Program-made: the position numbers and the translations under genes
DNA from: an uncultured Chloroflexia bacterium
GTDB taxonomy: Bacteria > Chloroflexota > Ktedonobacteria > Ktedonobacterales > JADMIN01
Direction: 5' to 3'
Assembly (NCBI GenBank): GCA_963840335.1
Contig: CAWIYP010000012.1
Coordinates: 218,661-282,660, forward strand
Length of the DNA stretch: 64,000 nt
The notes under the pieces: generated by a model
The model's database searches: none
Told to the model about the DNA's origin: nothing
What the model saw: the letters and a program-made list of their open reading frames with translations, nothing else
Shown: positions 27,397 to 56,623 of the stretch, piece by piece
Numbering within the stretch: the first letter of the stretch is position 1
Layout of the letters: the number at the start of each line of letters is the position of its first letter

Positions 27397-29100
27397 ATGG
27401 GCGAGAGGGGTATGAGCGAACCAACGGGCGAGACGAAGGCGATCCGGCGCCAGGCGCCAAAGCGCACCGCCGACGACATCTCAGCGATCATGCGTCGTGT
27501 GCATGGCCGCGACACCACTCCTGAGATGCGTCTGCGGCGGGCGCTCTGGGCGCGTGGGCTGCGCTACAGCGTCGCCGCCGCTGCGCTCCCCGGCAAGCCC
27601 GATATCGTCTTCCCCACCGCGCGTCTGGCCGTATTCGTGGATGGCGACTACTGGCATGGCAACCAGTGGCGCCGGCGGGGCAAGCTCGCACTGGAGGAGC
27701 AGTTCGCTGCGTCAGCGGAGGCATCGCGGGCCTACTGGCTGCGCAAGATTCGCCGTAACATGCGCCGCGACTGCGAAGCGACCGCCGCGCTGCTCCGCGG
27801 CGGCTGGACGATACTGCGCCTGTGGGAGAGTCAGATTACAGCGGATATGGAGGGATGCGTGAGCCTCATCGCCGACACGCTCGCCGACCAGCGCGGGGAG
27901 AATGGCCCAGCGCCCACCGACCTACGTGCGCGCCTGCCCCAGAAGACCTGCGCCGAATTCTTCGCCGGCATCGGGCTGATGCGCCTGGGACTGGAGCGGC
28001 AGGGCTGGCGCATCACCTTCGCCAACGACATCGACGAACGCAAGCGCGCCATGTATCTCGCCCACTTCGCGCCAGAGGGCGACACATCCGACTTTGCGCT
28101 GGGCGATGTGCATACACTGCCCGTGGAGCGCGTGCCGAGCGTGACACTGGCCACCGCGAGCTTCCCCTGCAACGACCTCTCGCTGGCTGGCGGACGGCAG
28201 GGGCTGGCAGGCGCGCATTCCTCGGCATTCTGGGGCTTCATCCGCACTCTCGATGAGCTTGGCCCACGCCGCCCGCCGCTGGTGTTGCTGGAGAATGTGC
28301 CAGGCTTCCTCACCTCACATGGCGGAGCAGACTTCGCCCGCGCGCTGCGTGCGCTCGACGCTCTGGGCTATGTGGTGGATGCTTTCCAGCTCGACGCCGC
28401 CCGCTTCACACCACAGAGCCGCCGCCGTCTCTTCGTCATTGGCGCGCAGGCCGCTCTCTTCGCAGATACACCCAGCGAGGCGCCGACGCTCACCGCCAGC
28501 GAGCTACGGCCCCAGGCGCTGCTCGACGCCATCCCCGCGACCACCGACGTGCGCTGGCGCGTGCGTCCGCTGCCAGAGCCACCGCAACGTGAGACGCGCC
28601 TCGACGACATCCTCGATGATCTGCCAGAGTCAGCGCCGGAGTGGTGGTCCTCTGACCGCGCCAGCTACCTGCTGGGCCAGATGAGTCCGCGCCACCGCGC
28701 CCTGGCCGACGCCATGATCGCGGGGGAGCGCTGGAGCTATGGCGCCGTCTTCCGCCGCATGCGCCAGGGCCGCTCGATGGCCGAGCTGCGAGTGGATGGC
28801 ATGGCTGGCTGCCTGCGCACCCCACGCGGCGGCAGCGGGCGGCAGATCATCTTCCGGGGCGGCGGCGGACGCTACCAGGCGCGGCTGCTGACCCCACGCG
28901 AGGCGGCGCGGCTGATGGGCGCGGGCGAGTTCCGCATCTCCGGCTCGCTCAATGACGCACTCTTCGGCTTCGGCGATGCGGTCTGCGCCGACGCCATCGC
29001 CTGGATCGCCACCTACTACCTCGATCCGCTCATCAACGAGCTGATGCGGGGCGCGCCACTGCGCGCCGCGAGCGCGTCTGTCGCGAGAGATGAGCGCTGA
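27397..29100 (+). CDS. Fusion protein: Vsr-type very-short-patch-repair endonuclease domain plus DNA (cytosine-5) methyltransferase
   Basis: N-terminal Vsr motifs: DTTPEMRLRRAL, LPGKPDIVFP, VFVDGDYWHG, RRNMRRD, GWTILRLWE. C-terminal C5-MTase motifs: I FFAGIGL, IV SFPCNDLSLAG, VI ENVPGF, VIII QSRRRLFVIG, X GFGDAVC. It is one uninterrupted 567-aa ORF. Confidence 0.85.
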   Translation: MGERGMSEPTGETKAIRRQAPKRTADDISAIMRRVHGRDTTPEMRLRRALWARGLRYSVAAAALPGKPDIVFPTARLAVFVDGDYWHGNQWRRRGKLALEEQFAASAEASRAYWLRKIRRNMRRDCEATAALLRGGWTILRLWESQITADMEGCVSLIADTLADQRGENGPAPTDLRARLPQKTCAEFFAGIGLMRLGLERQGWRITFANDIDERKRAMYLAHFAPEGDTSDFALGDVHTLPVERVPSVTLATASFPCNDLSLAGGRQGLAGAHSSAFWGFIRTLDELGPRRPPLVLLENVPGFLTSHGGADFARALRALDALGYVVDAFQLDAARFTPQSRRRLFVIGAQAALFADTPSEAPTLTASELRPQALLDAIPATTDVRWRVRPLPEPPQRETRLDDILDDLPESAPEWWSSDRASYLLGQMSPRHRALADAMIAGERWSYGAVFRRMRQGRSMAELRVDGMAGCLRTPRGGSGRQIIFRGGGGRYQARLLTPREAARLMGAGEFRISGSLNDALFGFGDAVCADAIAWIATYYLDPLINELMRGAPLRAASASVARDER

Positions 29101-35702: not shown

Positions 35703-36310
35703 ATGGCGATTACCCGCGAGCGATTTGACCAGGGCATGACACTTGAGGAGTACAAGGCGCAGATGACGCAGAACCGCGAGGCGTTCGCGGCGAATGAGGC
35801 GGCTGTGATCTTACGGCCAGAGGATGTGGCGTTCTTCGAGCAGTCTTCCGGCGACGATCAACGCACTGATCATCACCGAGGACTGGTGCGGCGACGCGCT
35901 GGCGAATGCGCCCGTGCTGGCGAAAGTGGCCGAGCAGACGGGCAAGCTGAACCTGCGCGTTCTTCCTGCGCGACCAGAATCTCGACCTCGCCGACCAATA
36001 CCTGAAGGAAGGCAAGTACCGCTCGGTTCCCGTCTTCGTCTTTTTCGATGAGGAGATGCGCGAGCTTGGCCACTTCATCGAGCGGCCCGCGCGAGTGACG
36101 GCGGAGATGCAGGCGGCTACCGCCGAGCTAGTCGCCGCGCACCCCGAGATACCCGACCTTGGCGCCTCCTTCGAGAGCATGAGCGACGCCGCGAAGGCCC
36201 TGCGCTTCCAGTCGCTCAGCGAGCTTCGCCAGCAGCGCGCCGCCACCTGGACGGAGATGCTGCTCGACGACATCGAGGCGCTGCTCAGCGCCAGCGTCAC
36301 GACCCGCTAG
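35703..36310 (+). pseudogene. Thioredoxin-fold protein, two frame disruptions as sequenced
   Basis: Three consecutive frames carry MAITRERFDQGMTLEEYKAQ...VAFFEQ, then LPATINALIITEDWCGDALANAPVLAKVAEQTGKLNLRV, then FLRDQNLDLADQYLKEGKYRSVPVFVFFDEEMRELGHFIERP. The switches are near 35844 and 35960 (TT run). The span of 608 nt equals 3n+2. Confidence 0.7.
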
Positions 36311-36336
36311 CCTCACTCCATCGCTCACCCTCCAAC

Positions 36337-36385
36337 ATAGCCCCACTCGCAGCGACATGCGCTACGCGAGTGGGGCTATTTGCGC
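36337..36385 (+). terminator. Intrinsic terminator-like hairpin
   Basis: A 14-bp stem ATAGCCCCACTCGC / GCGAGTGGGGCTAT (36337-36379) is followed by TTGCGCC, just after the stop at 36310. Confidence 0.5.
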
Positions 36386-36498
36386 CTGGAGAGTCGTATA
36401 CTACGCCTGTGAAGGAGCACGCACGACATCCGTTCAGTTGGCGTATGCGCTCAAGAGTGACGTGAGCGTTCACTCGGCGCTGAAAGGGGTCTGACATC

Positions 36499-37654
36499 AT
36501 GGGACAGGCTGCGCGTGAGGTAGTGATCGTTGAAGCGGCGCGTACACCGGTGGGCAGACGCAATGGCGCGCTGCGCGATGTCCATCCGGTGATGCTGGCG
36601 GCGCAGATCATGCGCGAAGTGACGCAGCGCGCGGGCATCGAGCCTGGCATGGTCGAGGATGTCGTCTGGGGCTGCGTCAGCCAGGTCGGCGAGCAGGGTC
36701 TGAACATCGGGCGCAACGCAGTGCTGGCGGCGGGCTTCCCCGTCACGGTCCCCGCGACGACGGTAGATCGCCAGTGCGGCTCAGGACAGCAGGCGATTCA
36801 CTTCGCGGCGAACCTGATCCAGTCGGGCGTCTGCGATCTGACCATCGCGGGCGGTGTCGAGAGCATGTCGCGCATTCCCATCGGCTCATCCATCGCGGCG
36901 GGTGGCTCGCCGTTCCCGCCCTCGCTGCTGGAGGTCTACCCCATCACCCACCAGGGGCTTGTCGGCGGAGATGATCGCTGACCAGTGGAATATCAGCCGC
37001 GAGGAGATGGACGCGCTGAGCCTGCGCAGCCACCAGCGCGCGGCGGCGGCGCAGGACGCGGGCGCCTTCGACCGCGAGATCGCCCCGGTCGCGCTGGCGG
37101 ATGGCTCCTCGGTGTCGCGCGACGAGGGCGTGCGCCGCGATACCACGCTGGAGCGACTGGCCTCGCTCCAGCCCGCCTTCAAGCCCGATGGCAAGGTGAC
37201 AGCGGGCAGCAGCAGCCAGATCAGCGATGGCGCCGCCGCGCTGCTCCTCACCACACCGGAGCGCGCGGCGACGCTGGGGCTGCGGCCACGCGCGCGCATC
37301 GTCGCCCAGCGCGTCGTCGGCGTGGACCCCGTGACGATGCTGACCGGCCCGATTCCCGCCACCCAGCAGATTCTGGAGCGCGCGGGCCTGACGGTGGACG
37401 ACATTGATCTCTTCGAGATCAACGAAGCCTTCGCGCCGGTCGTGCTGGCCTGGGAGAAGGAACTACACGCCGACATGGAGCGCGTCAACGTCAACGGCGG
37501 CGCCATTGCGCTGGGGCATCCGCTCGGGGCATCTGGCGCGCGTCTGATGGTGACGCTGCTGCATGAATTGGAGCGGCGCAACGCCCGCTACGGCTTGCAG
37601 GCGATGTGTTGCGGTGGCGGCCTCGGCACGGCGACGATCATCGAGCGACTCTGA
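36499..37654 (+). pseudogene. Acetyl-CoA C-acetyl/acyltransferase (thiolase), one frame disruption as sequenced
   Basis: The N-terminal half (VVIVEAARTPVGRRNG...TVDRQCGSGQQAI, active-site Cys) is in frame 1. The C-terminal half (SAEMIADQWNISREEMD...NVNGGAIALGHPLGASG...CCGGGLG) is in frame 2. The switch is at the GGGG run 36954-36957. The span of 1156 nt equals 3n+1. Confidence 0.85.
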
Positions 37655-41949: not shown

Positions 41950-42095
41950 CCTCGCGCCATGCCGAATAGGCGCTCATCCGCTGAAATGTGGCGCTTCATC
42001 GCGTCCCTCCGTCTTGAGAGCAGAGACCCCACACAGCGAGACGACGAACCGCCCGTGAGCGGGCTGTGTGGCGGCAAGACTGGAGGGCGCAGCGT

Positions 42096-42455
42096 ATGCG
42101 CGTACTATGGTTCAACTGGCGCGCCACCGGGCGTGATGAAGACGTTTCGCAGGCAGCCTGCGGCGTGCGGCGAGAGCGCACAGCGGATGAAATCACCCTT
42201 TCGCTGCGGATGATCCCGCTCTATCGGGTGCAGCTTCTGAGCCGCGCTGCCGATGCCCCACTCGCGCGCTGGTGGTCGCCGGATGGTCGCGCGATGCTGG
42301 CGCAGCTTCTCGGCCCTGAGCGAGCGGAGCGCGCCCTGCGTGACATCACCGAGTTGGGGGTCGCCGTCATCGCGGTCTGCCCGCGCGAGCTGGCGGAACA
42401 CTACTATGACGAGCTGACACGGCTCGCCCTGCCCTGCGCCATCCAGCCCGCATGA
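42096..42455 (+). CDS. Hypothetical small protein
   Basis: ATG 42096 lies 8 nt after GGAGGG. Third-position GC is high in the C-terminal two thirds. I recognise no motif. Confidence 0.4.
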   Translation: MRVLWFNWRATGRDEDVSQAACGVRRERTADEITLSLRMIPLYRVQLLSRAADAPLARWWSPDGRAMLAQLLGPERAERALRDITELGVAVIAVCPRELAEHYYDELTRLALPCAIQPA

Positions 42456-42524
42456 GCGCCACACCACGAGCGACGCCCCGCTTCCCCAGGTGAGGAGGCG
42501 GGGCGTCGTTCTGTGTGTGGCGGG

Positions 42525-44093
42525 TCAGGCCAGCGCTGCCTCAACTGGAACCTTCGCGCCAACAGGATTGACATGCCGCGCGCCAGGAACCCGCTGCGCC
42601 AGGCCCATCACGAGCAGCGGCGCCGTCAGCGACGCATCCGCCGCGACGCTCACCCCCTGCGCCAGCGGAGCCGCGCCCAGCGTCACATCGCCGAGCAGCG
42701 CGGGCCGCGCGCCGCCAAGGGCCACAGCGGCCTCGCGCGCCTGGAGCAGCAGACTATCCTCCAGCCCGGCGCCCACGCGGAGCACGCCCAGACTTGCCCG
42801 CGCGCCAAGGATACGCGCCAGACCCGCGAGATCGCCGCTGGCGTCGAGGCTTACGCTCGCCCCCTGCTCACGCGCCGCCAACAATGCCGCGCCGATGGCG
42901 CTGGCGCTCAGGTCGGGCGTGAAGATCGCCACTCCAAACGTCGCCGCCGCCTGCAACAGCCCCTTGCGTGGCGCCACGCTCGGCAGCGCCTCCCCGAGCG
43001 CCTTCCACAGGCCAGCGCCCGTGGTCAGGCGCGATGCGTCCACCTTGCCGAGGAAGTCACGCACGAAGGCCAACGTGGCCGCGCGCCCCTCATCACTGGC
43101 GATCACCCCCGCGTCGTCGGCGTAATGCGCATACCCCAGCGATTCGTAGAGATCGGCGAAGAGGTCGTCGGCGCTCGCCACGATGACATCTACATAGCGG
43201 TGCTCGACCGCATAGACCAACGTCTCGCGCAGTCCAGCGGCGATCACTGGCTTCGCGAGCGTCAGCGCGATGGTCGCATCATCCGCGCGCACCAGCCGCT
43301 CCCACGTCGCCAGCGCCTTGCCCAGTGCTCGGCCATCGCCCGCGCCCGCCATCAGCTTATCGAGCAGCCCACTCACCGACGCGGTGGGATTCACCAGCGG
43401 CGGCTCTGTGGCGGTCAGCGTGCGCCCCTGCTCCAGCGTCACCGTCTCGCCCGCATGGCCCAGCGGCACGGCAGTGGCGCCGCCACGCGCGCACGGCTCG
43501 CATTCGCTCTCCCCAGCGGCTCCATCTGAGCCGAGATCGGGCGTGACGCCATACTGCGGCCAGAGCATCCGCCCCTCGCCCACGCGCTGCGCCAAAGCCG
43601 CCTCGCGTTCGCTGGCCAGCGGCGCGGGATGATCAGGCAGGGCTGGTTCTTTGCTCACGATGCCAGCGGCCAGGCGCGCATCAGCGGCGGCGATCAACTC
43701 ATCGGTCGCGCCATTCGCGCCGTGGTGCGGCCCCTTGAAGGAGAGGCCGCGCTGCACCAGCATGCGATCCATCTCCTGGACATCGAACGCCTCTTTGATG
43801 TAGGCGATGGCCTTCTCGTGATCGAAGTTCTTGCACGAGAAGATGTCCATGGTGAAGTAGTCGAGTTCGGGGAAGGTGTGGATGGCGATGTGGCTCTCGG
43901 CGATCACGACAAGGCCAGAAACGCCGGAATACGCGGGGTCGGGGGCCTGATACTCGAACATGTATGGGCCGCCGATTTTGGTCATGCCAATCGCGGAGGG
44001 GTAATCGTTCAGGACTTGCTCGACGAGGATGCGGTCAGCGAGCTTGCGGGTATCGCAACGCGAACCATCAATGATGAGGTGTGGACCGAACAC
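42525..44093 (-). CDS. Fusion protein: pyruvoyl-type S-adenosylmethionine decarboxylase (SpeH-like) plus deoxyhypusine-synthase-like domain
   Basis: A GTG start lies 7 nt after AAGGAG. The N-terminal ~120 aa carry the self-processing motif VIAESHIAIHTFPE. A linker of ~90 aa follows. The C-terminal ~300 aa resemble the DHS family (GRALGKALATWERLV...TIALTLAKPVIAAGLRETLVYAVEHRYVDVIVASADDLFADL). It is a single 522-aa ORF. Confidence 0.8.
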   Translation of the reverse strand: MFGPHLIIDGSRCDTRKLADRILVEQVLNDYPSAIGMTKIGGPYMFEYQAPDPAYSGVSGLVVIAESHIAIHTFPELDYFTMDIFSCKNFDHEKAIAYIKEAFDVQEMDRMLVQRGLSFKGPHHGANGATDELIAAADARLAAGIVSKEPALPDHPAPLASEREAALAQRVGEGRMLWPQYGVTPDLGSDGAAGESECEPCARGGATAVPLGHAGETVTLEQGRTLTATEPPLVNPTASVSGLLDKLMAGAGDGRALGKALATWERLVRADDATIALTLAKPVIAAGLRETLVYAVEHRYVDVIVASADDLFADLYESLGYAHYADDAGVIASDEGRAATLAFVRDFLGKVDASRLTTGAGLWKALGEALPSVAPRKGLLQAAATFGVAIFTPDLSASAIGAALLAAREQGASVSLDASGDLAGLARILGARASLGVLRVGAGLEDSLLLQAREAAVALGGARPALLGDVTLGAAPLAQGVSVAADASLTAPLLVMGLAQRVPGARHVNPVGAKVPVEAALA

Positions 44094-44363
44094 GTGTGTC
44101 TCCTTGCTATGCGGACAACGCCGCTAGCTCTCGCCGGTGTGAAAACAGGCGATATACCAGTTGAGATAGTTGTAGATAGCCAGAGATGGCCTTACTGGTA
44201 CACATACCAGCCCTTTCCTTTCGCCGAACTCCCTACCCAATCGGATCTCTATGCCATTGCGGCAGCCGCGCACGGCCAGGTTCTCTGGCGCGCGAGGAGG
44301 CGGTTCAGCGTATCGCATTACTTCGCGTATACGGGTGGGGGGTATACCGCCCGCAGCGTAGGC

Positions 44364-44392
44364 ACTATACGTTGCGGGAGGAGCAACGTCAA
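44364..44392 (-). promoter_or_regulatory. Sigma70-like promoter upstream of the speH-DHS fusion
   Basis: On the minus strand: TTGACG (44392-44387), 17-nt spacer, TATAGT (44369-44364). This implies a leader of ~260 nt. Confidence 0.45.
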
Positions 44393-44411: not shown

Positions 44412-45418
44412 CTAGCGCTGGGCGGGATGCTCCAACTGCTCCAGGAAGGAAGCGAGGTCGTAAGGTAGCGGCTTATCGAAGACTATCCACTCACCTGTCA
44501 TGGGATGGCGAAATTCCAGATGCCCGGCGTGAAGGAACTGGCGTGGCGGCATCGGCTCCTGAGGTCGCCCATACACGGAATCACCGACGACTGGATGACG
44601 CAACGCGGCGAGATGCACACGAATCTGGTGTGTCCGCCCCGTCTCCAGTTCTACCTCCAGCAGCGTTCGCCCGGGATAGATAGCGCAGGGTTCGATAGTG
44701 GGTGCGCGGCCGCACGCCCACCATGCGCCTCGCTGACCAGCGCCATGCGCAGGCGGGTGCGCGGGTCGCGGCCAATCGGCGCGTCAATTGTGCCGCTGGG
44801 CAGGCTCGATGCGGCCCTCCACCAGCACGATGTAGCGCTTGACCATCGCACGCTCACGCATCTGGTCGGCCAGCGCCGTATGCGTCGCGGCGTCCTTCGC
44901 GATGACGAGCAGCCCCGAGGTATCCTTATCGAGCCGATGGACGATGCCCTGGCCGCTGCGGATTCTCGCTGTCCTCCAGGCCAGGCGCGTGGGCCAGCAG
45001 CGCATTGACCAGCGTGCCAGTCGCATGCCCCGGCGCCGGATGCGTCACCAGTCCGGCGGGCTTGTCGATGACGAGGAGATGGCGTCCTCGTAGATGACGA
45101 TGCGAGGGGAATATCCTCTGGCTGCGGCGCGGCGCCAGCCGCCAGCGCCGCGGCCTGGCCCAGCGTCGGCGCGAGCGCGAGCCGCTGGTCAACTTCCAGA
45201 ATGGCGCTGGGCTTGGCTGGCTTGCCGTCCACCGTCACCTCACCCGCCTTGATGGCCGCCTGCGCCCTGGTGCGCGAGAGGTCGGGGCGCAGGCCTGCCA
45301 GCGCACGGTCGAGGCGCTGCCCCGCCACCTCCTCCGCGACGACGAGATCCTCCCACGCGGCGTGGTCGGCGTCGCCAGATGAGGTGGTGGGTGAAACGGC
45401 GCGCTTGTTCTGGCCCAT
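44412..45418 (-). pseudogene. rluD: 23S rRNA pseudouridine synthase RluD-type, about six frame disruptions as sequenced
   Basis: All conserved blocks are present but spread over three frames: the S4 domain (GQRLDRALA...[11 protein letters not shown]), [107 protein letters not shown]. The span of 1007 nt equals 3n+2. Confidence 0.85.
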
Positions 45419-45500
45419 GTCGGCTCTATCGCTCTTTCATTTACTCACGCCGGTCGCGGGTCTGCGTCCAAGGACACAGCCAGGCAGCGCGAGTGCGCGC

Positions 45501-53539: not shown

Positions 53540-54180
53540 CTTCGCCACAGCCTCAGGCGCCACTCCCCAGCATCGGTGTGCTGGTCTCTGGCCGTGGAAG
53601 CAATCTTCAGGCGATCTTGCGCGCCATCGCGAACGGCGAGCTACGCGCGCGAGTCTCGCTGGTCATCGCCAGCCGCCAAGACGCCCCAGCCCTCACGATT
53701 GCCACCGCGGCTGGCATCCCCACGCGGATCATCGTCCCACGCGAGTATCCCAGCCGCACGGAGGCCGCTGCGGAAATCATCGCGGCGCTGCGTGAGGCGG
53801 GGGCGCGTGTCGTGGCCCTCGCGGGTTACAAGCCGATTCTCGATGCGAGCGTCATCGCCGCCTTCCCCAATGCCATCATCAATGTCCATCCGTCCCTGCT
53901 CCCGGCCTTCGCTGGCGGCATGGCGCCGCGCCCGCAGACGGAGGCGCTGGAGGCCGGGGTGAAGATTTCTGGCTGCACTGTCCACTTCGTCACCGAGGAT
54001 GTGGACGCTGGGCCGATTATCGCGCAGGCCGCCGTCTCAGTGCTGGATGACGATACCGTCGAGACGCTCTCCGCACGCATCCTGGAGCAAGAGCATCGGC
54101 TGCTCCCCCGCGCGCTCGGCCTCGCGCTCTCTGGCCGCCTCATTGTAGACGGACGCCGTGTCATCCAACGCGCAGACTGA
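53536..54180 (+). CDS. purN: Phosphoribosylglycinamide formyltransferase
   Basis: It contains VLVSGRGSNLQAI, INVHPSLLPAF and a 4-nt overlap with purM (ATGA). Confidence 0.9.
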   Translation: MTSPQPQAPLPSIGVLVSGRGSNLQAILRAIANGELRARVSLVIASRQDAPALTIATAAGIPTRIIVPREYPSRTEAAAEIIAALREAGARVVALAGYKPILDASVIAAFPNAIINVHPSLLPAFAGGMAPRPQTEALEAGVKISGCTVHFVTEDVDAGPIIAQAAVSVLDDDTVETLSARILEQEHRLLPRALGLALSGRLIVDGRRVIQRAD

Positions 54181-54290
54181 TTCCGCGCATATCTTCCCAG
54201 CAATGCGCGGGAAACGCGCAACAACACGCCCCAGGTTCCTCCCGCATGCGGAGAAGAGCCTGGGGCGTGGAGTTATGCGACACGAGCGCG

Positions 54291-55354
54291 CTAGGAGTCG
54301 TGCTCCTGCTGCTCGCTCACTTCGGTTACGCGAGGGCGAGTCGTGCGTGGCGAACGCTTTTTCTGCTTGCCACCGTCCTCGTTTTCATCACGGAAGCGGG
54401 GAGTATCGCGACGGACCGCATGATGCCGTTCCCATCCGGTGTTCGTCGCCTCATCACGACCCTGCGGTGCAGGCGCTGAGGAACGGCGCGGTCCTCGATT
54501 ATCGCCAAAGTCACGGCGCGGCGGACGATCACCGAAGTCACGGCGCGGTCCTCGATCACCGCCGAAGTCACGGCGCGGCGGGCGATCACCAAAGTCACGG
54601 CGCGGCCCACGATCACCGCCAAAGTCACGCCGTGGCGGGCGATCACCGAAGTCACGGCGCGGCCCACGATCCTCGCCATAGTCGCGGCGCGGTGGGCGCT
54701 CGTCATAGTCGCGGCGCGGTGGGCGCTCGTCATAGTCGCGGCGCGGTGGGCGCTCGTCATAATCGCGACGCGGCTGGCGGTCGCCGAAGTCGCGCCGCGG
54801 ACCACGATCTTCACCGTAGTCGCGACGTGGCGGGCGATCGCCGAAGTCACGGCGCGGACCACGATCTTCACCGTAGTCGCGACGCGGCGGACGGTCATCA
54901 TAATCGCGGCGCGGGGGACGGTCATCGTAGTCGCGGCGTGGCGGGCGGTTATCATAATCGCGGCGCGGCGGGCGATCGTCAAAGTCACGCCGTGGCGGAC
55001 GATCGCCAAAGTCACGCCGTGGCGGGTGGTCGCCAAAGTCACGTCGTGGCGGCCACGATCGCCGCCAAAGTCACGCCGTGGCGGACGGTCGCCAAAGTCG
55101 CGCTGCTGGCGCTCCTCCGCCTCGTTGACATGAATGGTGCGACCATCCATCATTGTCCCTTCGAGGGACTGAATCGCACGGCGCGCGGCGTCGTCTTCCG
55201 CCATCTGCACGAAGCCAAAACCCTTGCTCTGTCCCGAAGCGCGGTCGCGCACGACACTGGCCTCAGCCACTTCACCATACACACTGAAAAGCTCCGCGAG
55301 TTGCTCATCACTGGCGGAGTAGGGGAGATTCCCCACGTACACACGAATAGCCAC
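54291..55354 (-). CDS. RRM-type RNA-binding protein with a long R/P/D tandem-repeat tail (one frame disruption as sequenced)
   Basis: GTG 55354 lies 5 nt after AAGGAG. The RRM has RNP2 IRVYVGNL and RNP1 KGFGFVQM. The tail [17 protein letters not shown] then leaves the repeat frame near 55047-55052. The repeat frame continues to TAG 54293-54291, whereas the as-sequenced frame stays open to 54326. Confidence 0.8.
54480..55095 (-). repeat. Coding tandem repeat, 27-36-nt units (about 22 units)
   Basis: It includes three perfect 27-mers CATAGTCGCGGCGCGGTGGGCGCTCGT at 54677-54757. On the minus strand the units encode [18 protein letters not shown] and similar. Several reading frames on both strands are stop-free through the array. 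Confidence 0.9.
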
Positions 55355-55711
55355 ACAGGCTCCTTGAACATTCTCGGCGTCGAACTGTCTCCGGCCCATA
55401 CCGGCAAGACATACGCCCTCGCTGACCCGCTTCACGCGAATCTCAAACACAACGCAACACACATCACTCGTTCTGGCGCACACTTCCGCGAACACCTTCA
55501 AGCGACCAAAACAACCATGCTTCCTCGATCATCCCCGGACAGAGACAAACCATCCCAGGAAAGCGTCCGCTCTCAGACACATCACACCATTCGCGACGCC
55601 CTACCACACGCAGCTTGCGCTATCGCTATAATGGAGAGGTTGCGCGCCCATCCGTAGGCAGCGCAGGTAACAGATGCGTACCAGGCGCGCTCGCAACAGA
55701 GGAGTCACACC

Positions 55712-56623
55712 ATGTCTGATTATACCGCATTGGACGATGCGCTTGCGCCTGCGATTGGGTTTATGCACCTGGACGCTCAATACACAGACTACGAGACGGC
55801 GCGCGTGGTCATCACCCCGGTACCTTTCGATGGCACGACTTGCTACCGCCCCGGGACACGGGAAGGCCCGCAAGCTATCATCGCCGCCTCGCGCAACCTG
55901 GAGTATTACGACGCGGAGCTGCGACGCTCGCCTTATACCGTCGGCATCCACACCCTGCGCCCAATCGAGATTATCAACGGCGACGCTGAGGCGATGGTCG
56001 CCCGCACAGAATGGGTGACGGGGCAGTTGCTCGATGCGGGCAAGTTCGTTGTCACGCTTGGCGGCGACCACCTCACCTCCATCGGCGTCATCCGCGCCTT
56101 CGCCCAGCGCCACGCGGGCATGAGTGTCTTGCAGCTAGACGCGCACGCTGATCTACGCGATGAATATGAAGGCGCCACCTGTAGCGCCGCCACGATCATG
56201 CGGCGCACGCTGGAGGTTTGCCCACGCACGGCGCAGGTCGGCATACGTAGCCTGAGCGAGCCTGAGGCGCGCCTGGTCGAGGAGCGCAAGCTGCCGCTCA
56301 TTCTCGCCAGCGAGATTCACGAGCAAACGCTGCGTGGTCGGCGTGAATGGATCAGTGAAGTCGTGAACGCGCTCACTGATGAGGTCTACATCACCTTCGA
56401 CATTGACGCCTTCGACCCCTCGCTCGTGCCGGGAACAGGCACGCCTGAGCCAGGCGGTCTGGGCTGGTATGACGCCATAGACCTGCTCACTGAGGTTGCT
56501 CGACACAAGCGGATCATCGGCTTCGATGTCGTGGAGCTTTCGCCACTACTCGAAGACCACGTCAGTCCCGTCGTCGCCGCGAAACTCGTCTATAAGCTGA
56601 TCGGCCTCGCGCTGCCAGAGTAG
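55712..56623 (+). CDS. speB: Agmatinase (ureohydrolase family)
   Basis: Mn-binding motifs GGDHLTS, LQLDAHADLRD and ITFDIDAFDPSLVPGTGTPEPGGL are present. Confidence 0.85.
   Translation: MSDYTALDDALAPAIGFMHLDAQYTDYETARVVITPVPFDGTTCYRPGTREGPQAIIAASRNLEYYDAELRRSPYTVGIHTLRPIEIINGDAEAMVARTEWVTGQLLDAGKFVVTLGGDHLTSIGVIRAFAQRHAGMSVLQLDAHADLRDEYEGATCSAATIMRRTLEVCPRTAQVGIRSLSEPEARLVEERKLPLILASEIHEQTLRGRREWISEVVNALTDEVYITFDIDAFDPSLVPGTGTPEPGGLGWYDAIDLLTEVARHKRIIGFDVVELSPLLEDHVSPVVAAKLVYKLIGLALPE

Follow-up and report, generated by a model that had tools for sequence, protein, structure and literature searches.

We analysed a 64,000-nucleotide stretch of DNA (the window) from an uncultured Chloroflexia bacterium of the Ktedonobacterales (assembly GCA_963840335.1, contig CAWIYP010000012.1), and in particular a minus-strand gene at 42525-44093 which joins two domains of polyamine metabolism in a single protein of 522 aa. 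The protein is probably a pyruvoyl arginine decarboxylase of the SpeDA type, permanently fused to a SpeY domain that has been retained in non-catalytic form. SpeY is a bacterial homologue of deoxyhypusine synthase (DHS) that condenses two molecules of agmatine (cf. CdmS, PMC10981699). An earlier reading, made from the sequence without database searches (the sequence-only reading), had described the gene as an S-adenosylmethionine decarboxylase (AdoMetDC) fused to a DHS-like enzyme, and had suggested channelled synthesis of an unusual polyamine. Its outline of the gene was accurate, the open reading frame (ORF) being listed at exactly the positions given. Its inference of a channelled pathway is unsupported for this protein, because the catalytic and NAD-binding residues of the second domain are not conserved and the scores against the relevant equivalog models fall far below their cutoffs.

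The fusion gene is intact and conserved

The ORF has a GTG start and a TGA stop. The N-terminus of its product (MFGPHLI) lines up with the starts of standalone homologues, and GC content is 0.81 at third codon positions (GC3) against 0.50 at second positions (GC2). The profile searches that the sequence-only reading had proposed as a check detected both domains above their gathering thresholds. Pfam AdoMet_dc (PF02675) matched aa 5-116 with 96.3 bits (gathering threshold 25) over the full profile, positions 1-107. Pfam DS (PF01916) matched aa 253-453 with 89.3 bits (threshold 27), over profile positions 12-228 of 288 only. The two-domain architecture was thus correctly recognised at the superfamily level, and a DHS fold was also found by Foldseek.

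A protein 100% identical to the window fusion is present in public data, encoded by a contig of 312 kb, and both Pfam domains are carried by all of at least 120 protein clusters with 59-100% identity. In a scan of one genome per GTDB species, the fusion family was found in 51 species genomes. All are uncultured Ktedonobacterales/Ktedonobacteria metagenome-assembled genomes (MAGs), including a complete genome of 5.07 Mb. The fusion ORF is uninterrupted in 46 of these 51 species representatives, among them short-read assemblies and the complete genome. Of the non-intact cases, two are truncated where a contig ends and two, from long-read-style assemblies, switch frame at adjacent or near-adjacent coordinates. 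Members of the family have diverged down to 44% identity and are still in frame. With an intact ORF in 46 of 51 independently assembled genomes, the fusion is real and conserved, and not a product of faulty assembly.

Loci resembling unfused, two-gene forms were also considered. P0125/L008 (on the same contig as L051) and L054 were ruled out as such forms, their frame switches lying at adjacent or near-adjacent coordinates. In a further candidate, P0138/L007, the two halves occupy different frames and no alignment was obtained for the linker.

An exhaustive phmmer search of 1.84 billion representatives yielded only 16 proteins at E <= 1e-30, and the family is therefore narrow. The gene neighbourhoods of 49 fusion loci were compared for operon partners, with gene calls made by a GC3 heuristic. 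Synteny was confined to individual lineages, with lspA-rluD upstream in 15 loci at most, and no polyamine family recurred. Two Centralia MAG contigs labelled 'Proteobacteria bacterium' (L047 and L055) carry a Ktedonobacterales-type fusion at 47% and 61% identity; a wrong taxonomic label or a binning error is a likelier explanation than horizontal transfer.

The C-terminal domain has lost the DHS/SpeY active site

The C-terminal domain (aa 234-514, encoded at 42552-43394 on the minus strand) has the DHS/SpeY fold. A profile of the fusion family aligned to full-length DHS chains, 6dft_B among the matches. AlphaFold predicted aa 210-514 with a predicted local distance difference test score (pLDDT) above 90, and the best Foldseek matches were all DHS structures, with template modelling scores of 0.73-0.77 normalised to the target, about 19% identity and probability 1.0. 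The DHS-like domain of about 300 aa in the sequence-only reading is therefore correct as to fold; its designation as an enzyme is not upheld, since catalytic and NAD residues are lost. None of the NCBIfam equivalog models for DHS, SpeY and homospermidine synthase came near its cutoff (best score 109 bits against 434). The SpeY models NF002699 and NF001980 gave 59 bits against 500 and 43 bits against 450 respectively. As a control, the SpeY of an Armatimonadota MAG (L064) scored 537 bits against the cutoff of 450 of the 'homospermidine biosynthesis protein' equivalog.

Residue states were counted across 47 fusion-family sequences. Positions are given in human DHS numbering, and all lie within the segments 96-145 and 224-368 shown in the alignment. 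The sequence-only reading had asked whether the NAD-binding and catalytic lysine positions are conserved, and they are not. The position of the catalytic lysine, K329, is never Lys (0 of 47), and that of W327 is a gap in 46 of 47 sequences. H288 is replaced by a gap or a small residue (Ser), and K287 mostly by Asp. In the NAD loop (TTAGG or STGAN in active enzymes), G133/G134 have become mostly Asp-Asp or Glu/Asn and are almost never Gly (one Gly at one position), while the E137 position is mainly Ala and never acidic. The D238 position is almost always Ala, Thr or Val, and the D243 position is mainly Ala, this last position being already non-acidic in active SpeY (Phe in CdmS, Met in the L064 SpeY). 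At D313 we found Ala, Ser or Thr; D316 and E323 are lost, and GGG has become GAG. Among the NAD-binding residues only D342-A343 are kept. The L064 control, by comparison, keeps D238, GGG, K287 and PSEAVSWGKI.

The loop GGLSGxTxxExxSWGK is deleted, its eight core positions being gaps in all 47 sequences and its final G and K positions gaps in 41. Further active-site segments are deleted in the most divergent members (L050 and L052). From 60 sampled active standalone SpeY-like proteins we obtained 57 alignment columns with at least 95% conservation, and the dead clade keeps 9 of these 57. CdmS/SpeY of Thermus thermophilus is NAD+-dependent and uses Lys299 and Glu293, which correspond to K329 and E323 (PMC10981699). 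Because the chemistry needs both NAD and the lysine, a DHS-like function appears to be excluded. Judged by these residues, the C-terminal domain is predicted to be a degenerate, catalytically dead SpeY (pseudo-SpeY), which could not transfer aminobutyl groups in the manner of DHS.

This domain is much less conserved than the N-terminal domain. Ratios of non-synonymous to synonymous substitution (dN/dS) were calculated by the Nei-Gojobori method for 88 sequence pairs with 72-93% identity. The value for the DS domain was 0.24, so that it evolves about five times faster than the N-terminal domain. Purifying selection on it is thus relaxed but still clear. In 100 of 100 bootstraps the dead domains fall into a single clade; this tree and the others reported here were built by neighbour-joining on BLOSUM62 distances, not by maximum likelihood. 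The fold is thus kept, the catalytic residues are lost and purifying selection persists, which is the combination that marks a pseudoenzyme.

A separate cluster of standalone DS-family proteins (P0290; 13 members, 353 aa, on contigs of up to 1.68 Mb) bears the JGI name 'deoxyhypusine synthase'. These proteins score 206 bits with Pfam DS and are without the SWGK lysine loop and the GGG-P-K-N motif, and their PDLHASEF segment resembles the dead domain of the fusion. Other bacteria may thus have dead SpeY-like proteins that are not part of a fusion.

The N-terminal domain and its substrate

The N-terminal domain (aa 1-118, 43740-44093, minus strand) is a class-1b SpeD-family pyruvoyl decarboxylase domain, and matched AdoMetDC of Thermotoga maritima (PDB 1tlu) with an E value of 6e-11. 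Alignment to 1tlu makes Ser67 equivalent to S63 of the T. maritima enzyme and predicts self-cleavage between Glu66 and Ser67 (43893-43898, minus strand). The motif that the sequence-only reading quoted for this site, VIAESHIAIHTFPELDYFTMDIFSC, is present at aa 63-87. Judging from the conserved residues, Ser67 would become the pyruvoyl cofactor. The segment HTFPE...DIFSCKNFD contains the predicted catalytic residues His72 (43878-43880) and Cys87 (43833-43835), equivalents of H68 and C83 (segment 43833-43880, minus strand). The catalytic role of S63, H68 and C83 in T. maritima SpeD is described in PMC10407285. E66-S67, H72 and C87 are invariant in 78 aligned sequences, the whole domain is nearly invariant across the fusion family, and its dN/dS is 0.046. 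AlphaFold gave a pLDDT of about 95 when the alignment was enriched with diverse standalone homologues; with a family-only alignment it was below 50, the probable reason being that the family hardly varies in this part. The invariant residues and the low dN/dS suggest that the domain is catalytically competent.

The sequence-only reading called this domain a complete AdoMetDC. A full SpeD-family domain is indeed present, but the neighbourhoods of its relatives make arginine the more probable substrate. The domain belongs to a subfamily with the signature IAESHIsIHTFP...DiFSCKxFD, whose standalone members are 42-55% identical to the query, compared with 34-35% for T. maritima SpeD. Nine standalone members were sampled for gene neighbourhood. 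Five of them (L061/L062, L063, L065 and L066) lie 28-147 bp upstream of an arginase-family gene; they represent three bacterial loci of one syntenic lineage and one Micrarchaeia archaeon. The neighbouring genes of L061 and L065, the two that were scanned, pass the agmatinase equivalog TIGR01230. In the Armatimonadota MAG L064, the standalone SpeD-like gene lies 87 bp upstream of the SpeY gene that passes NF001980. speE adjoins none of the nine. The three closest standalone homologues (from Sericytochromatia, Schekmanbacteria and Bacteroidota) have no adjoining polyamine genes and give no clue to the substrate, and the same is true of one archaeal homologue.

The literature on SpeD homologues points in the same direction as these neighbourhoods. 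In Capsulimonas (Armatimonadota) and DPANN archaea, candidate speDA genes are found in clusters that also contain speY and speB; the SpeD homologues purified from these organisms have the kinetics of arginine decarboxylases, and the characterised candidates are without AdoMetDC activity (PMC10407285). The experimental criterion for AdoMetDC in that study was the rescue of spermidine synthesis in E. coli delta-speD. A route from arginine through agmatine and G44G to homospermidine has been described (PMC13625781). The subfamily overlaps taxonomically with the 'third emergence' clade of SpeDA (Armatimonadota, Melainabacteria/Sericytochromatia, DPANN). SpeDA is recognised by association with agmatine-consuming enzymes (speB, speY, aguA/B) rather than with speE, and such an association was found here through the relatives and through the SpeY-derived fusion partner. 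Because the relatives adjoin agmatinase or SpeY, both of which consume agmatine, because SpeDA enzymes have been characterised, and because the fusion partner derives from SpeY, we consider it quite likely that the N-terminal domain is an L-arginine decarboxylase of the SpeDA type.

SpeDC, the ornithine decarboxylase derived from SpeD, was tried as an identity for the domain and rejected. The query has VVIAESHIAIHTFPE...FSCKNF where SpeDC has VQLIETSLVSGHFAN...FSCNYY, and the diagnostic Gln, Thr, Phe and Tyr residues in the central region of SpeDC are absent.

Two neighbourhoods of standalone genes were of a different kind. In a Sericytochromatia MAG (L001, 88-1519) a close SpeD-like gene is divergent from efp, encoding elongation factor P. 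In Schekmanbacteria (L003, 3595-7626) the SpeD-like gene heads a row comprising an unknown gene of 137 aa, a lysine-2,3-aminomutase-like radical SAM gene, an ATP-grasp gene and EamA. These neighbours may point to a different substrate or role for some members of the subfamily.

Domain scans agreed with the sequence-only reading that no speE-type gene is visible here: a speE-type domain was found in no suitably sized ORF of the 64-kb window, and speE was not among the recurring neighbours of the 49 fusion loci. The agmatinase gene that it placed about 12 kb away is also real. This gene (speB, 55712-56623, plus strand) gave 239 bits with Pfam Arginase and 252 bits with TIGR01230 (cutoff 174). 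It is unlinked to the fusion gene, from which it is separated by 11.6 kb, and among the other genomes only L015 and L040 have an orthologue no more than 10 kb from the fusion. The window agmatinase likely consumes the agmatine made by the fusion protein, the pathway link being inferred.

The linker

The two domains are connected by a linker of about 115 aa (aa 119-233, 43395-43739, minus strand), rather than the approximately 90 aa of low-complexity sequence described previously. It is mostly predicted to be disordered, with pLDDT mostly below 50 and with helices predicted at aa 130-142 and 160-168. The window protein contains the motifs GPHHG, GATDELIAAA and WPQYGVTPD, and across the family GPHHG, WPxYG and NPTxS..GLL.K are invariant. 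The dN/dS of the linker is 0.20. The linker is low-complexity only in part, and it is not mere filler.

A relative with an intact SpeY domain

Among the phmmer matches was a protein of 581 aa (P0276) encoded on one JGI metagenome contig of 6.2 kb. Its N-terminal domain falls inside the fusion clade in 100 of 100 bootstraps, with 70-85% identity to members with dead domains versus 42-53% to standalone homologues, and it shares the linker motifs of the fusion. The SpeY motifs STGANLFHD, GDSSFG, GGGTPKNF and FSEAQSWGKV are all present in P0276. It scores 314 bits with Pfam DS over the full profile and keeps 54 of the 57 invariant columns; its NCBIfam equivalog score is 397 bits against the cutoff of 434. 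P0276 is the only fusion with an intact SpeY among 170 full-length family sequences (not de-duplicated), and also the only intact one among the matches listed from a search of 5.8 billion proteins. Its gene context, a weak CN_hydrolase-like gene and an aldo-keto reductase, was uninformative. P0276 may be a relic of the ancestral state, or it may have arisen by secondary replacement of a domain. On the evidence of its motifs, P0276 may be a channelling bifunctional enzyme, with the logic arginine to agmatine to bis-guanidino-homospermidine rather than decarboxylated S-adenosylmethionine (dcAdoMet) plus spermidine.

Proposed mechanism and alternative explanations

As the conserved residues suggest, the proenzyme would cleave itself between Glu66 and Ser67 to give a beta chain (aa 1-66) and an alpha chain (aa 67-522) with a pyruvoyl N-terminus. 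His72 and Cys87 would complete the active site, at which arginine would be decarboxylated to agmatine, and a separately encoded agmatinase would convert agmatine to putrescine. The C-terminal domain would keep the DHS/SpeY fold, with neither NAD binding nor a lysine-imine intermediate, and would be selected for a non-catalytic role. The most plausible such role would be that of an oligomerisation scaffold or a regulatory module on which the decarboxylase came to depend. A scaffold could represent oligomerisation inherited from the quaternary structure of the DHS family and entrenched after SpeY activity was lost. The whole protein might descend from an ancestral bifunctional SpeDA-SpeY enzyme that converted arginine through agmatine to bis-guanidino-homospermidine. 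More tentatively, the dead SpeY could be a 'prozyme' acting in cis, that is, an obligatory allosteric activator or a polyamine-responsive regulator, entrenched when the ancestral bifunctional enzyme lost its second activity.

Several points weigh against a SpeDA-type decarboxylase carrying a dead SpeY. Any role for the dead domain is conjectural. The neighbourhoods of four of the nine sampled relatives were uninformative, and the accessions of characterised SpeDA enzymes were not found among ten clusters looked up. A proline reported as invariant in true AdoMetDC but variable in SpeDA (PMC10407285) is retained in the fusion (HTFPE), and the fusion passes the NCBIfam AdoMetDC equivalog TIGR03330 (84.9 bits against 75.65). 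The SpeY-linked Armatimonadota homologue of L064 also has the proline and passes TIGR03330, so these two features do not discriminate AdoMetDC from arginine decarboxylase. Finally, the DS domain of P0276 groups with standalone SpeYs, and its joint monophyly with the dead clade was recovered in only 18 of 100 neighbour-joining bootstraps; this placement is unreliable because of the long branch to the dead clade.

The retained proline and the TIGR03330 score, together with a catalytic triad identical to that of T. maritima SpeD and public names reading adenosylmethionine decarboxylase, would also suit a bona fide AdoMetDC with the dead SpeY as a regulatory or scaffold appendage, its dcAdoMet feeding an aminopropyltransferase encoded elsewhere. 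We regard this as unlikely, since the proline and a passing TIGR03330 score are shared by a homologue directly upstream of a bona fide SpeY, the closest standalone relatives sampled adjoin agmatinase or SpeY and never speE, the fusion partner derives from an agmatine-using enzyme, no speE was seen in the window or among recurring neighbours in the 49 loci, and the domain shares no more than 34-35% identity with T. maritima SpeD. A bifunctional protein, whose DHS-like domain was active and converted the decarboxylase product or spermidine into an unusual polyamine or used it to modify a protein, would account for the presence of both Pfam domains, the confirmed DHS fold and the existence of P0276 with its intact SpeY. 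For the window protein it is very improbable: here and in 46 relatives the lysine loop is deleted, the NAD glycines are acidic and H288, K287, D238, D243, E137 and E323 are missing, the equivalog models give 59-109 bits where 304-500 are required, and the most divergent members have whole active-site segments deleted. It is scarcely credible that the C-terminal region is decaying and without function, or that errors of assembly or frameshifts created the fusion. Frameshifts in neighbouring genes of the contig and the weaker conservation of the C-terminal domain would fit such an origin, but 46 of 51 independently assembled genomes have an intact ORF, the domain and the linker have dN/dS values of 0.24 and 0.20 respectively, the fold prediction is of high confidence, and the dead clade has diverged to 44% identity while staying in frame.

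Two further explanations would give the C-terminal domain a different task, and both seem improbable. As a docking subunit for a separate active SpeY, comparable to the trypanosomatid pair DHSp/DHSc, it would tether agmatine supply to the condensing enzyme and so lead to homospermidine. Enzymes of the DHS family form oligomers whose active sites lie between subunits, in trypanosomatids the live enzyme is activated by its dead paralogue (PMC3663545), and the dead domain of the fusion keeps many SpeY-type structural motifs under purifying selection. Against docking, no second DS gene was found in the window or among neighbours in the 49 loci, and no standalone SpeY labelled Ktedonobacterales was present among the best 120 relatives of the intact domain. 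Unlike DHSp, moreover, the domain has lost the NAD-binding residues too, and therefore could not complement a shared site. Alternatively, the domain might have acquired a new ligand or reaction, for example as a polyamine or agmatine sensor for feedback, or with different catalytic chemistry. Purifying selection, the conserved linker motifs and several polar residues that are invariant in the family but no part of the old catalytic set (K246, E265, R289, D314, E317, R376-K377, Q381, D394, Q500-R501 and R506) speak for such a change. However, the guanidyl-binding Glu (equivalent to E323) is deleted with its loop, the acidic residues D238 and D243 have given way to small ones, the domain evolves about five times faster than the N-terminal domain, divergent members have large deletions in the former pocket, and no new conserved motif suggestive of catalysis was identified.

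Expression signals and neighbouring genes

A Shine-Dalgarno sequence, AAGGAG, read directly from the sequence, lies 6 nt before the GTG start (44100-44105, minus strand). About 270 nt upstream of the start is a candidate sigma-70-like promoter, TTGACG-17-TATAGT, with 10 of 12 matches (44364-44392, minus strand). It was found by a consensus scan (1 site against 0.2 expected) and is a pattern match only. A little beyond the stop codon is a GC-rich hairpin with a perfect stem of 11 bp, CGACGCCCCGC / GCGGGGCGTCG (42471-42508, minus strand). The RNA fold has an energy of -42.5 kcal/mol and a z score of -5.76. This hairpin has no T-run and was not called by the terminator scan, which requires one; it is possibly a terminator without a U-run. 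The fusion gene lies among housekeeping genes, with lspA-rluD upstream on its own strand and gap-pgk-tpiA on the opposite one, and it appears to be monocistronic.

Between tpiA and the 3' end of the fusion gene, and convergent with the latter, is an ORF of 129 aa (42066-42455, plus strand). Its GC3 of 0.77 is coding-like, and it has no Pfam or NCBIfam match. Just upstream of the fusion gene, the protein of a relative matched rluD (44415-45466, minus strand) in frames -1, -2 and -3, giving at least two frameshifts, and rluD is either a pseudogene or affected by indel errors in the contig. The concern of the sequence-only reading about indels in this part of the contig was therefore justified for rluD but not for the fusion ORF.

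Some other genes of the window were noted. A thiolase ORF (36854-37654, plus strand, within the region 36056-37654) matches only the second half of Thiolase_N together with Thiolase_C, the N-terminal half being absent. Short ORFs lie just upstream of it, and the gene looks as if it has been broken by a frameshift. A Vsr very-short-patch-repair endonuclease domain (aa 28-93) and a C-5 cytosine DNA methylase domain (aa 185-538) are encoded together in one ORF of 567 aa at 27397-29100 (plus strand). Between purN and the agmatinase gene, on the opposite strand, is a gene for a protein of 390 aa with a eukaryote-type RNA recognition motif (RRM_1, 77 bits; 54326-55501, minus strand). A plus-strand ORF overlapping it (54158-55657) has no family match.

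Comparison with known systems

SpeDA, SpeY, pseudoenzymes of polyamine metabolism and the pattern of a fusion with a degraded domain are already known. In the literature searched we found no description of a SpeD-family-SpeY fusion or of a dead DHS-family domain in bacteria, in agreement with the statement of the sequence-only reading that it knew of no characterised enzyme with this architecture, and nothing relevant on the polyamine content of Ktedonobacter. The public names 'adenosylmethionine decarboxylase' and 'deoxyhypusine synthase family' are probably misleading when the metabolism of this widespread, uncultured soil lineage is reconstructed, since one activity of the protein is likely arginine decarboxylation and the other presumably nonexistent. 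Two-domain architecture in Pfam alone does not imply a two-step channelled pathway. The genes described here form a natural series, from separate speDA and speY (Armatimonadota), through a fusion with both domains intact (P0276), to fusions with a dead but selected SpeY (about 50 species). It offers useful material for work on the origin and retention of pseudoenzyme domains, for which the precedents in polyamine metabolism come mainly from trypanosomatids and SpeD-SpeDC fusions. If the tentative proposal of a cis-acting 'prozyme' were true, this would be the first polyamine synthesis controlled by a pseudoenzyme in bacteria, convergent with the AdoMetDC prozyme and DHSp of trypanosomatids, and P0276 would allow the transition to be reconstructed experimentally.

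The closest known arrangement is the speDA-speY-speB homospermidine cluster (Li, Liang, Phillips and Michael, JBC 2023, PMC10407285; JBC 2026, PMC13625781), neither report of which mentions a SpeDA-SpeY fusion. In these clusters a class-1b SpeD homologue is followed by SpeY, in the same order as in the fusion; L064 has both as adjacent separate genes, and the window likewise holds an agmatinase-family gene. The window fusion differs in being one polypeptide with a SpeY part that is without the catalytic lysine and the NAD-binding and substrate-binding residues, and in having speB 11.6 kb away rather than clustered. With CdmS/SpeY, the agmatine homocoupling enzyme of T. thermophilus (PMC10981699; NF002699 / NF001980), the dead domain has in common the fold and several motifs, namely the (S/T)xxx(N/D)L(F/Y)xD..E..G segment, GxRE and the C-terminal DAxxALPLLxTGL. 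CdmS needs NAD+, Lys299 and Glu293, whereas the window domain has neither the NAD-binding residues nor equivalents of the two side chains.

Among pseudoenzymes, trypanosomatid DHSp (PMC3663545; PDB 6dft_B) is also a dead DHS-family copy kept under selection, and the AdoMetDC prozyme (PMC5201418) provides a case of a pyruvoyl decarboxylase paired with a pseudoenzyme. Both are separate eukaryotic paralogues which pair with a live copy of the same enzyme. The window domain, in contrast, is bacterial, is joined in cis to an enzyme of another kind and is without the NAD-binding residues too, and any activation of its partner would be hypothetical. The SpeD-SpeDC fusion of Victivallis likewise has a degraded second domain and intact bifunctional relatives, which parallels P0276 and the dead clade, although its degraded domain is a second SpeD homologue (an ornithine decarboxylase) rather than a DHS/SpeY fold, and it belongs to a different lineage.

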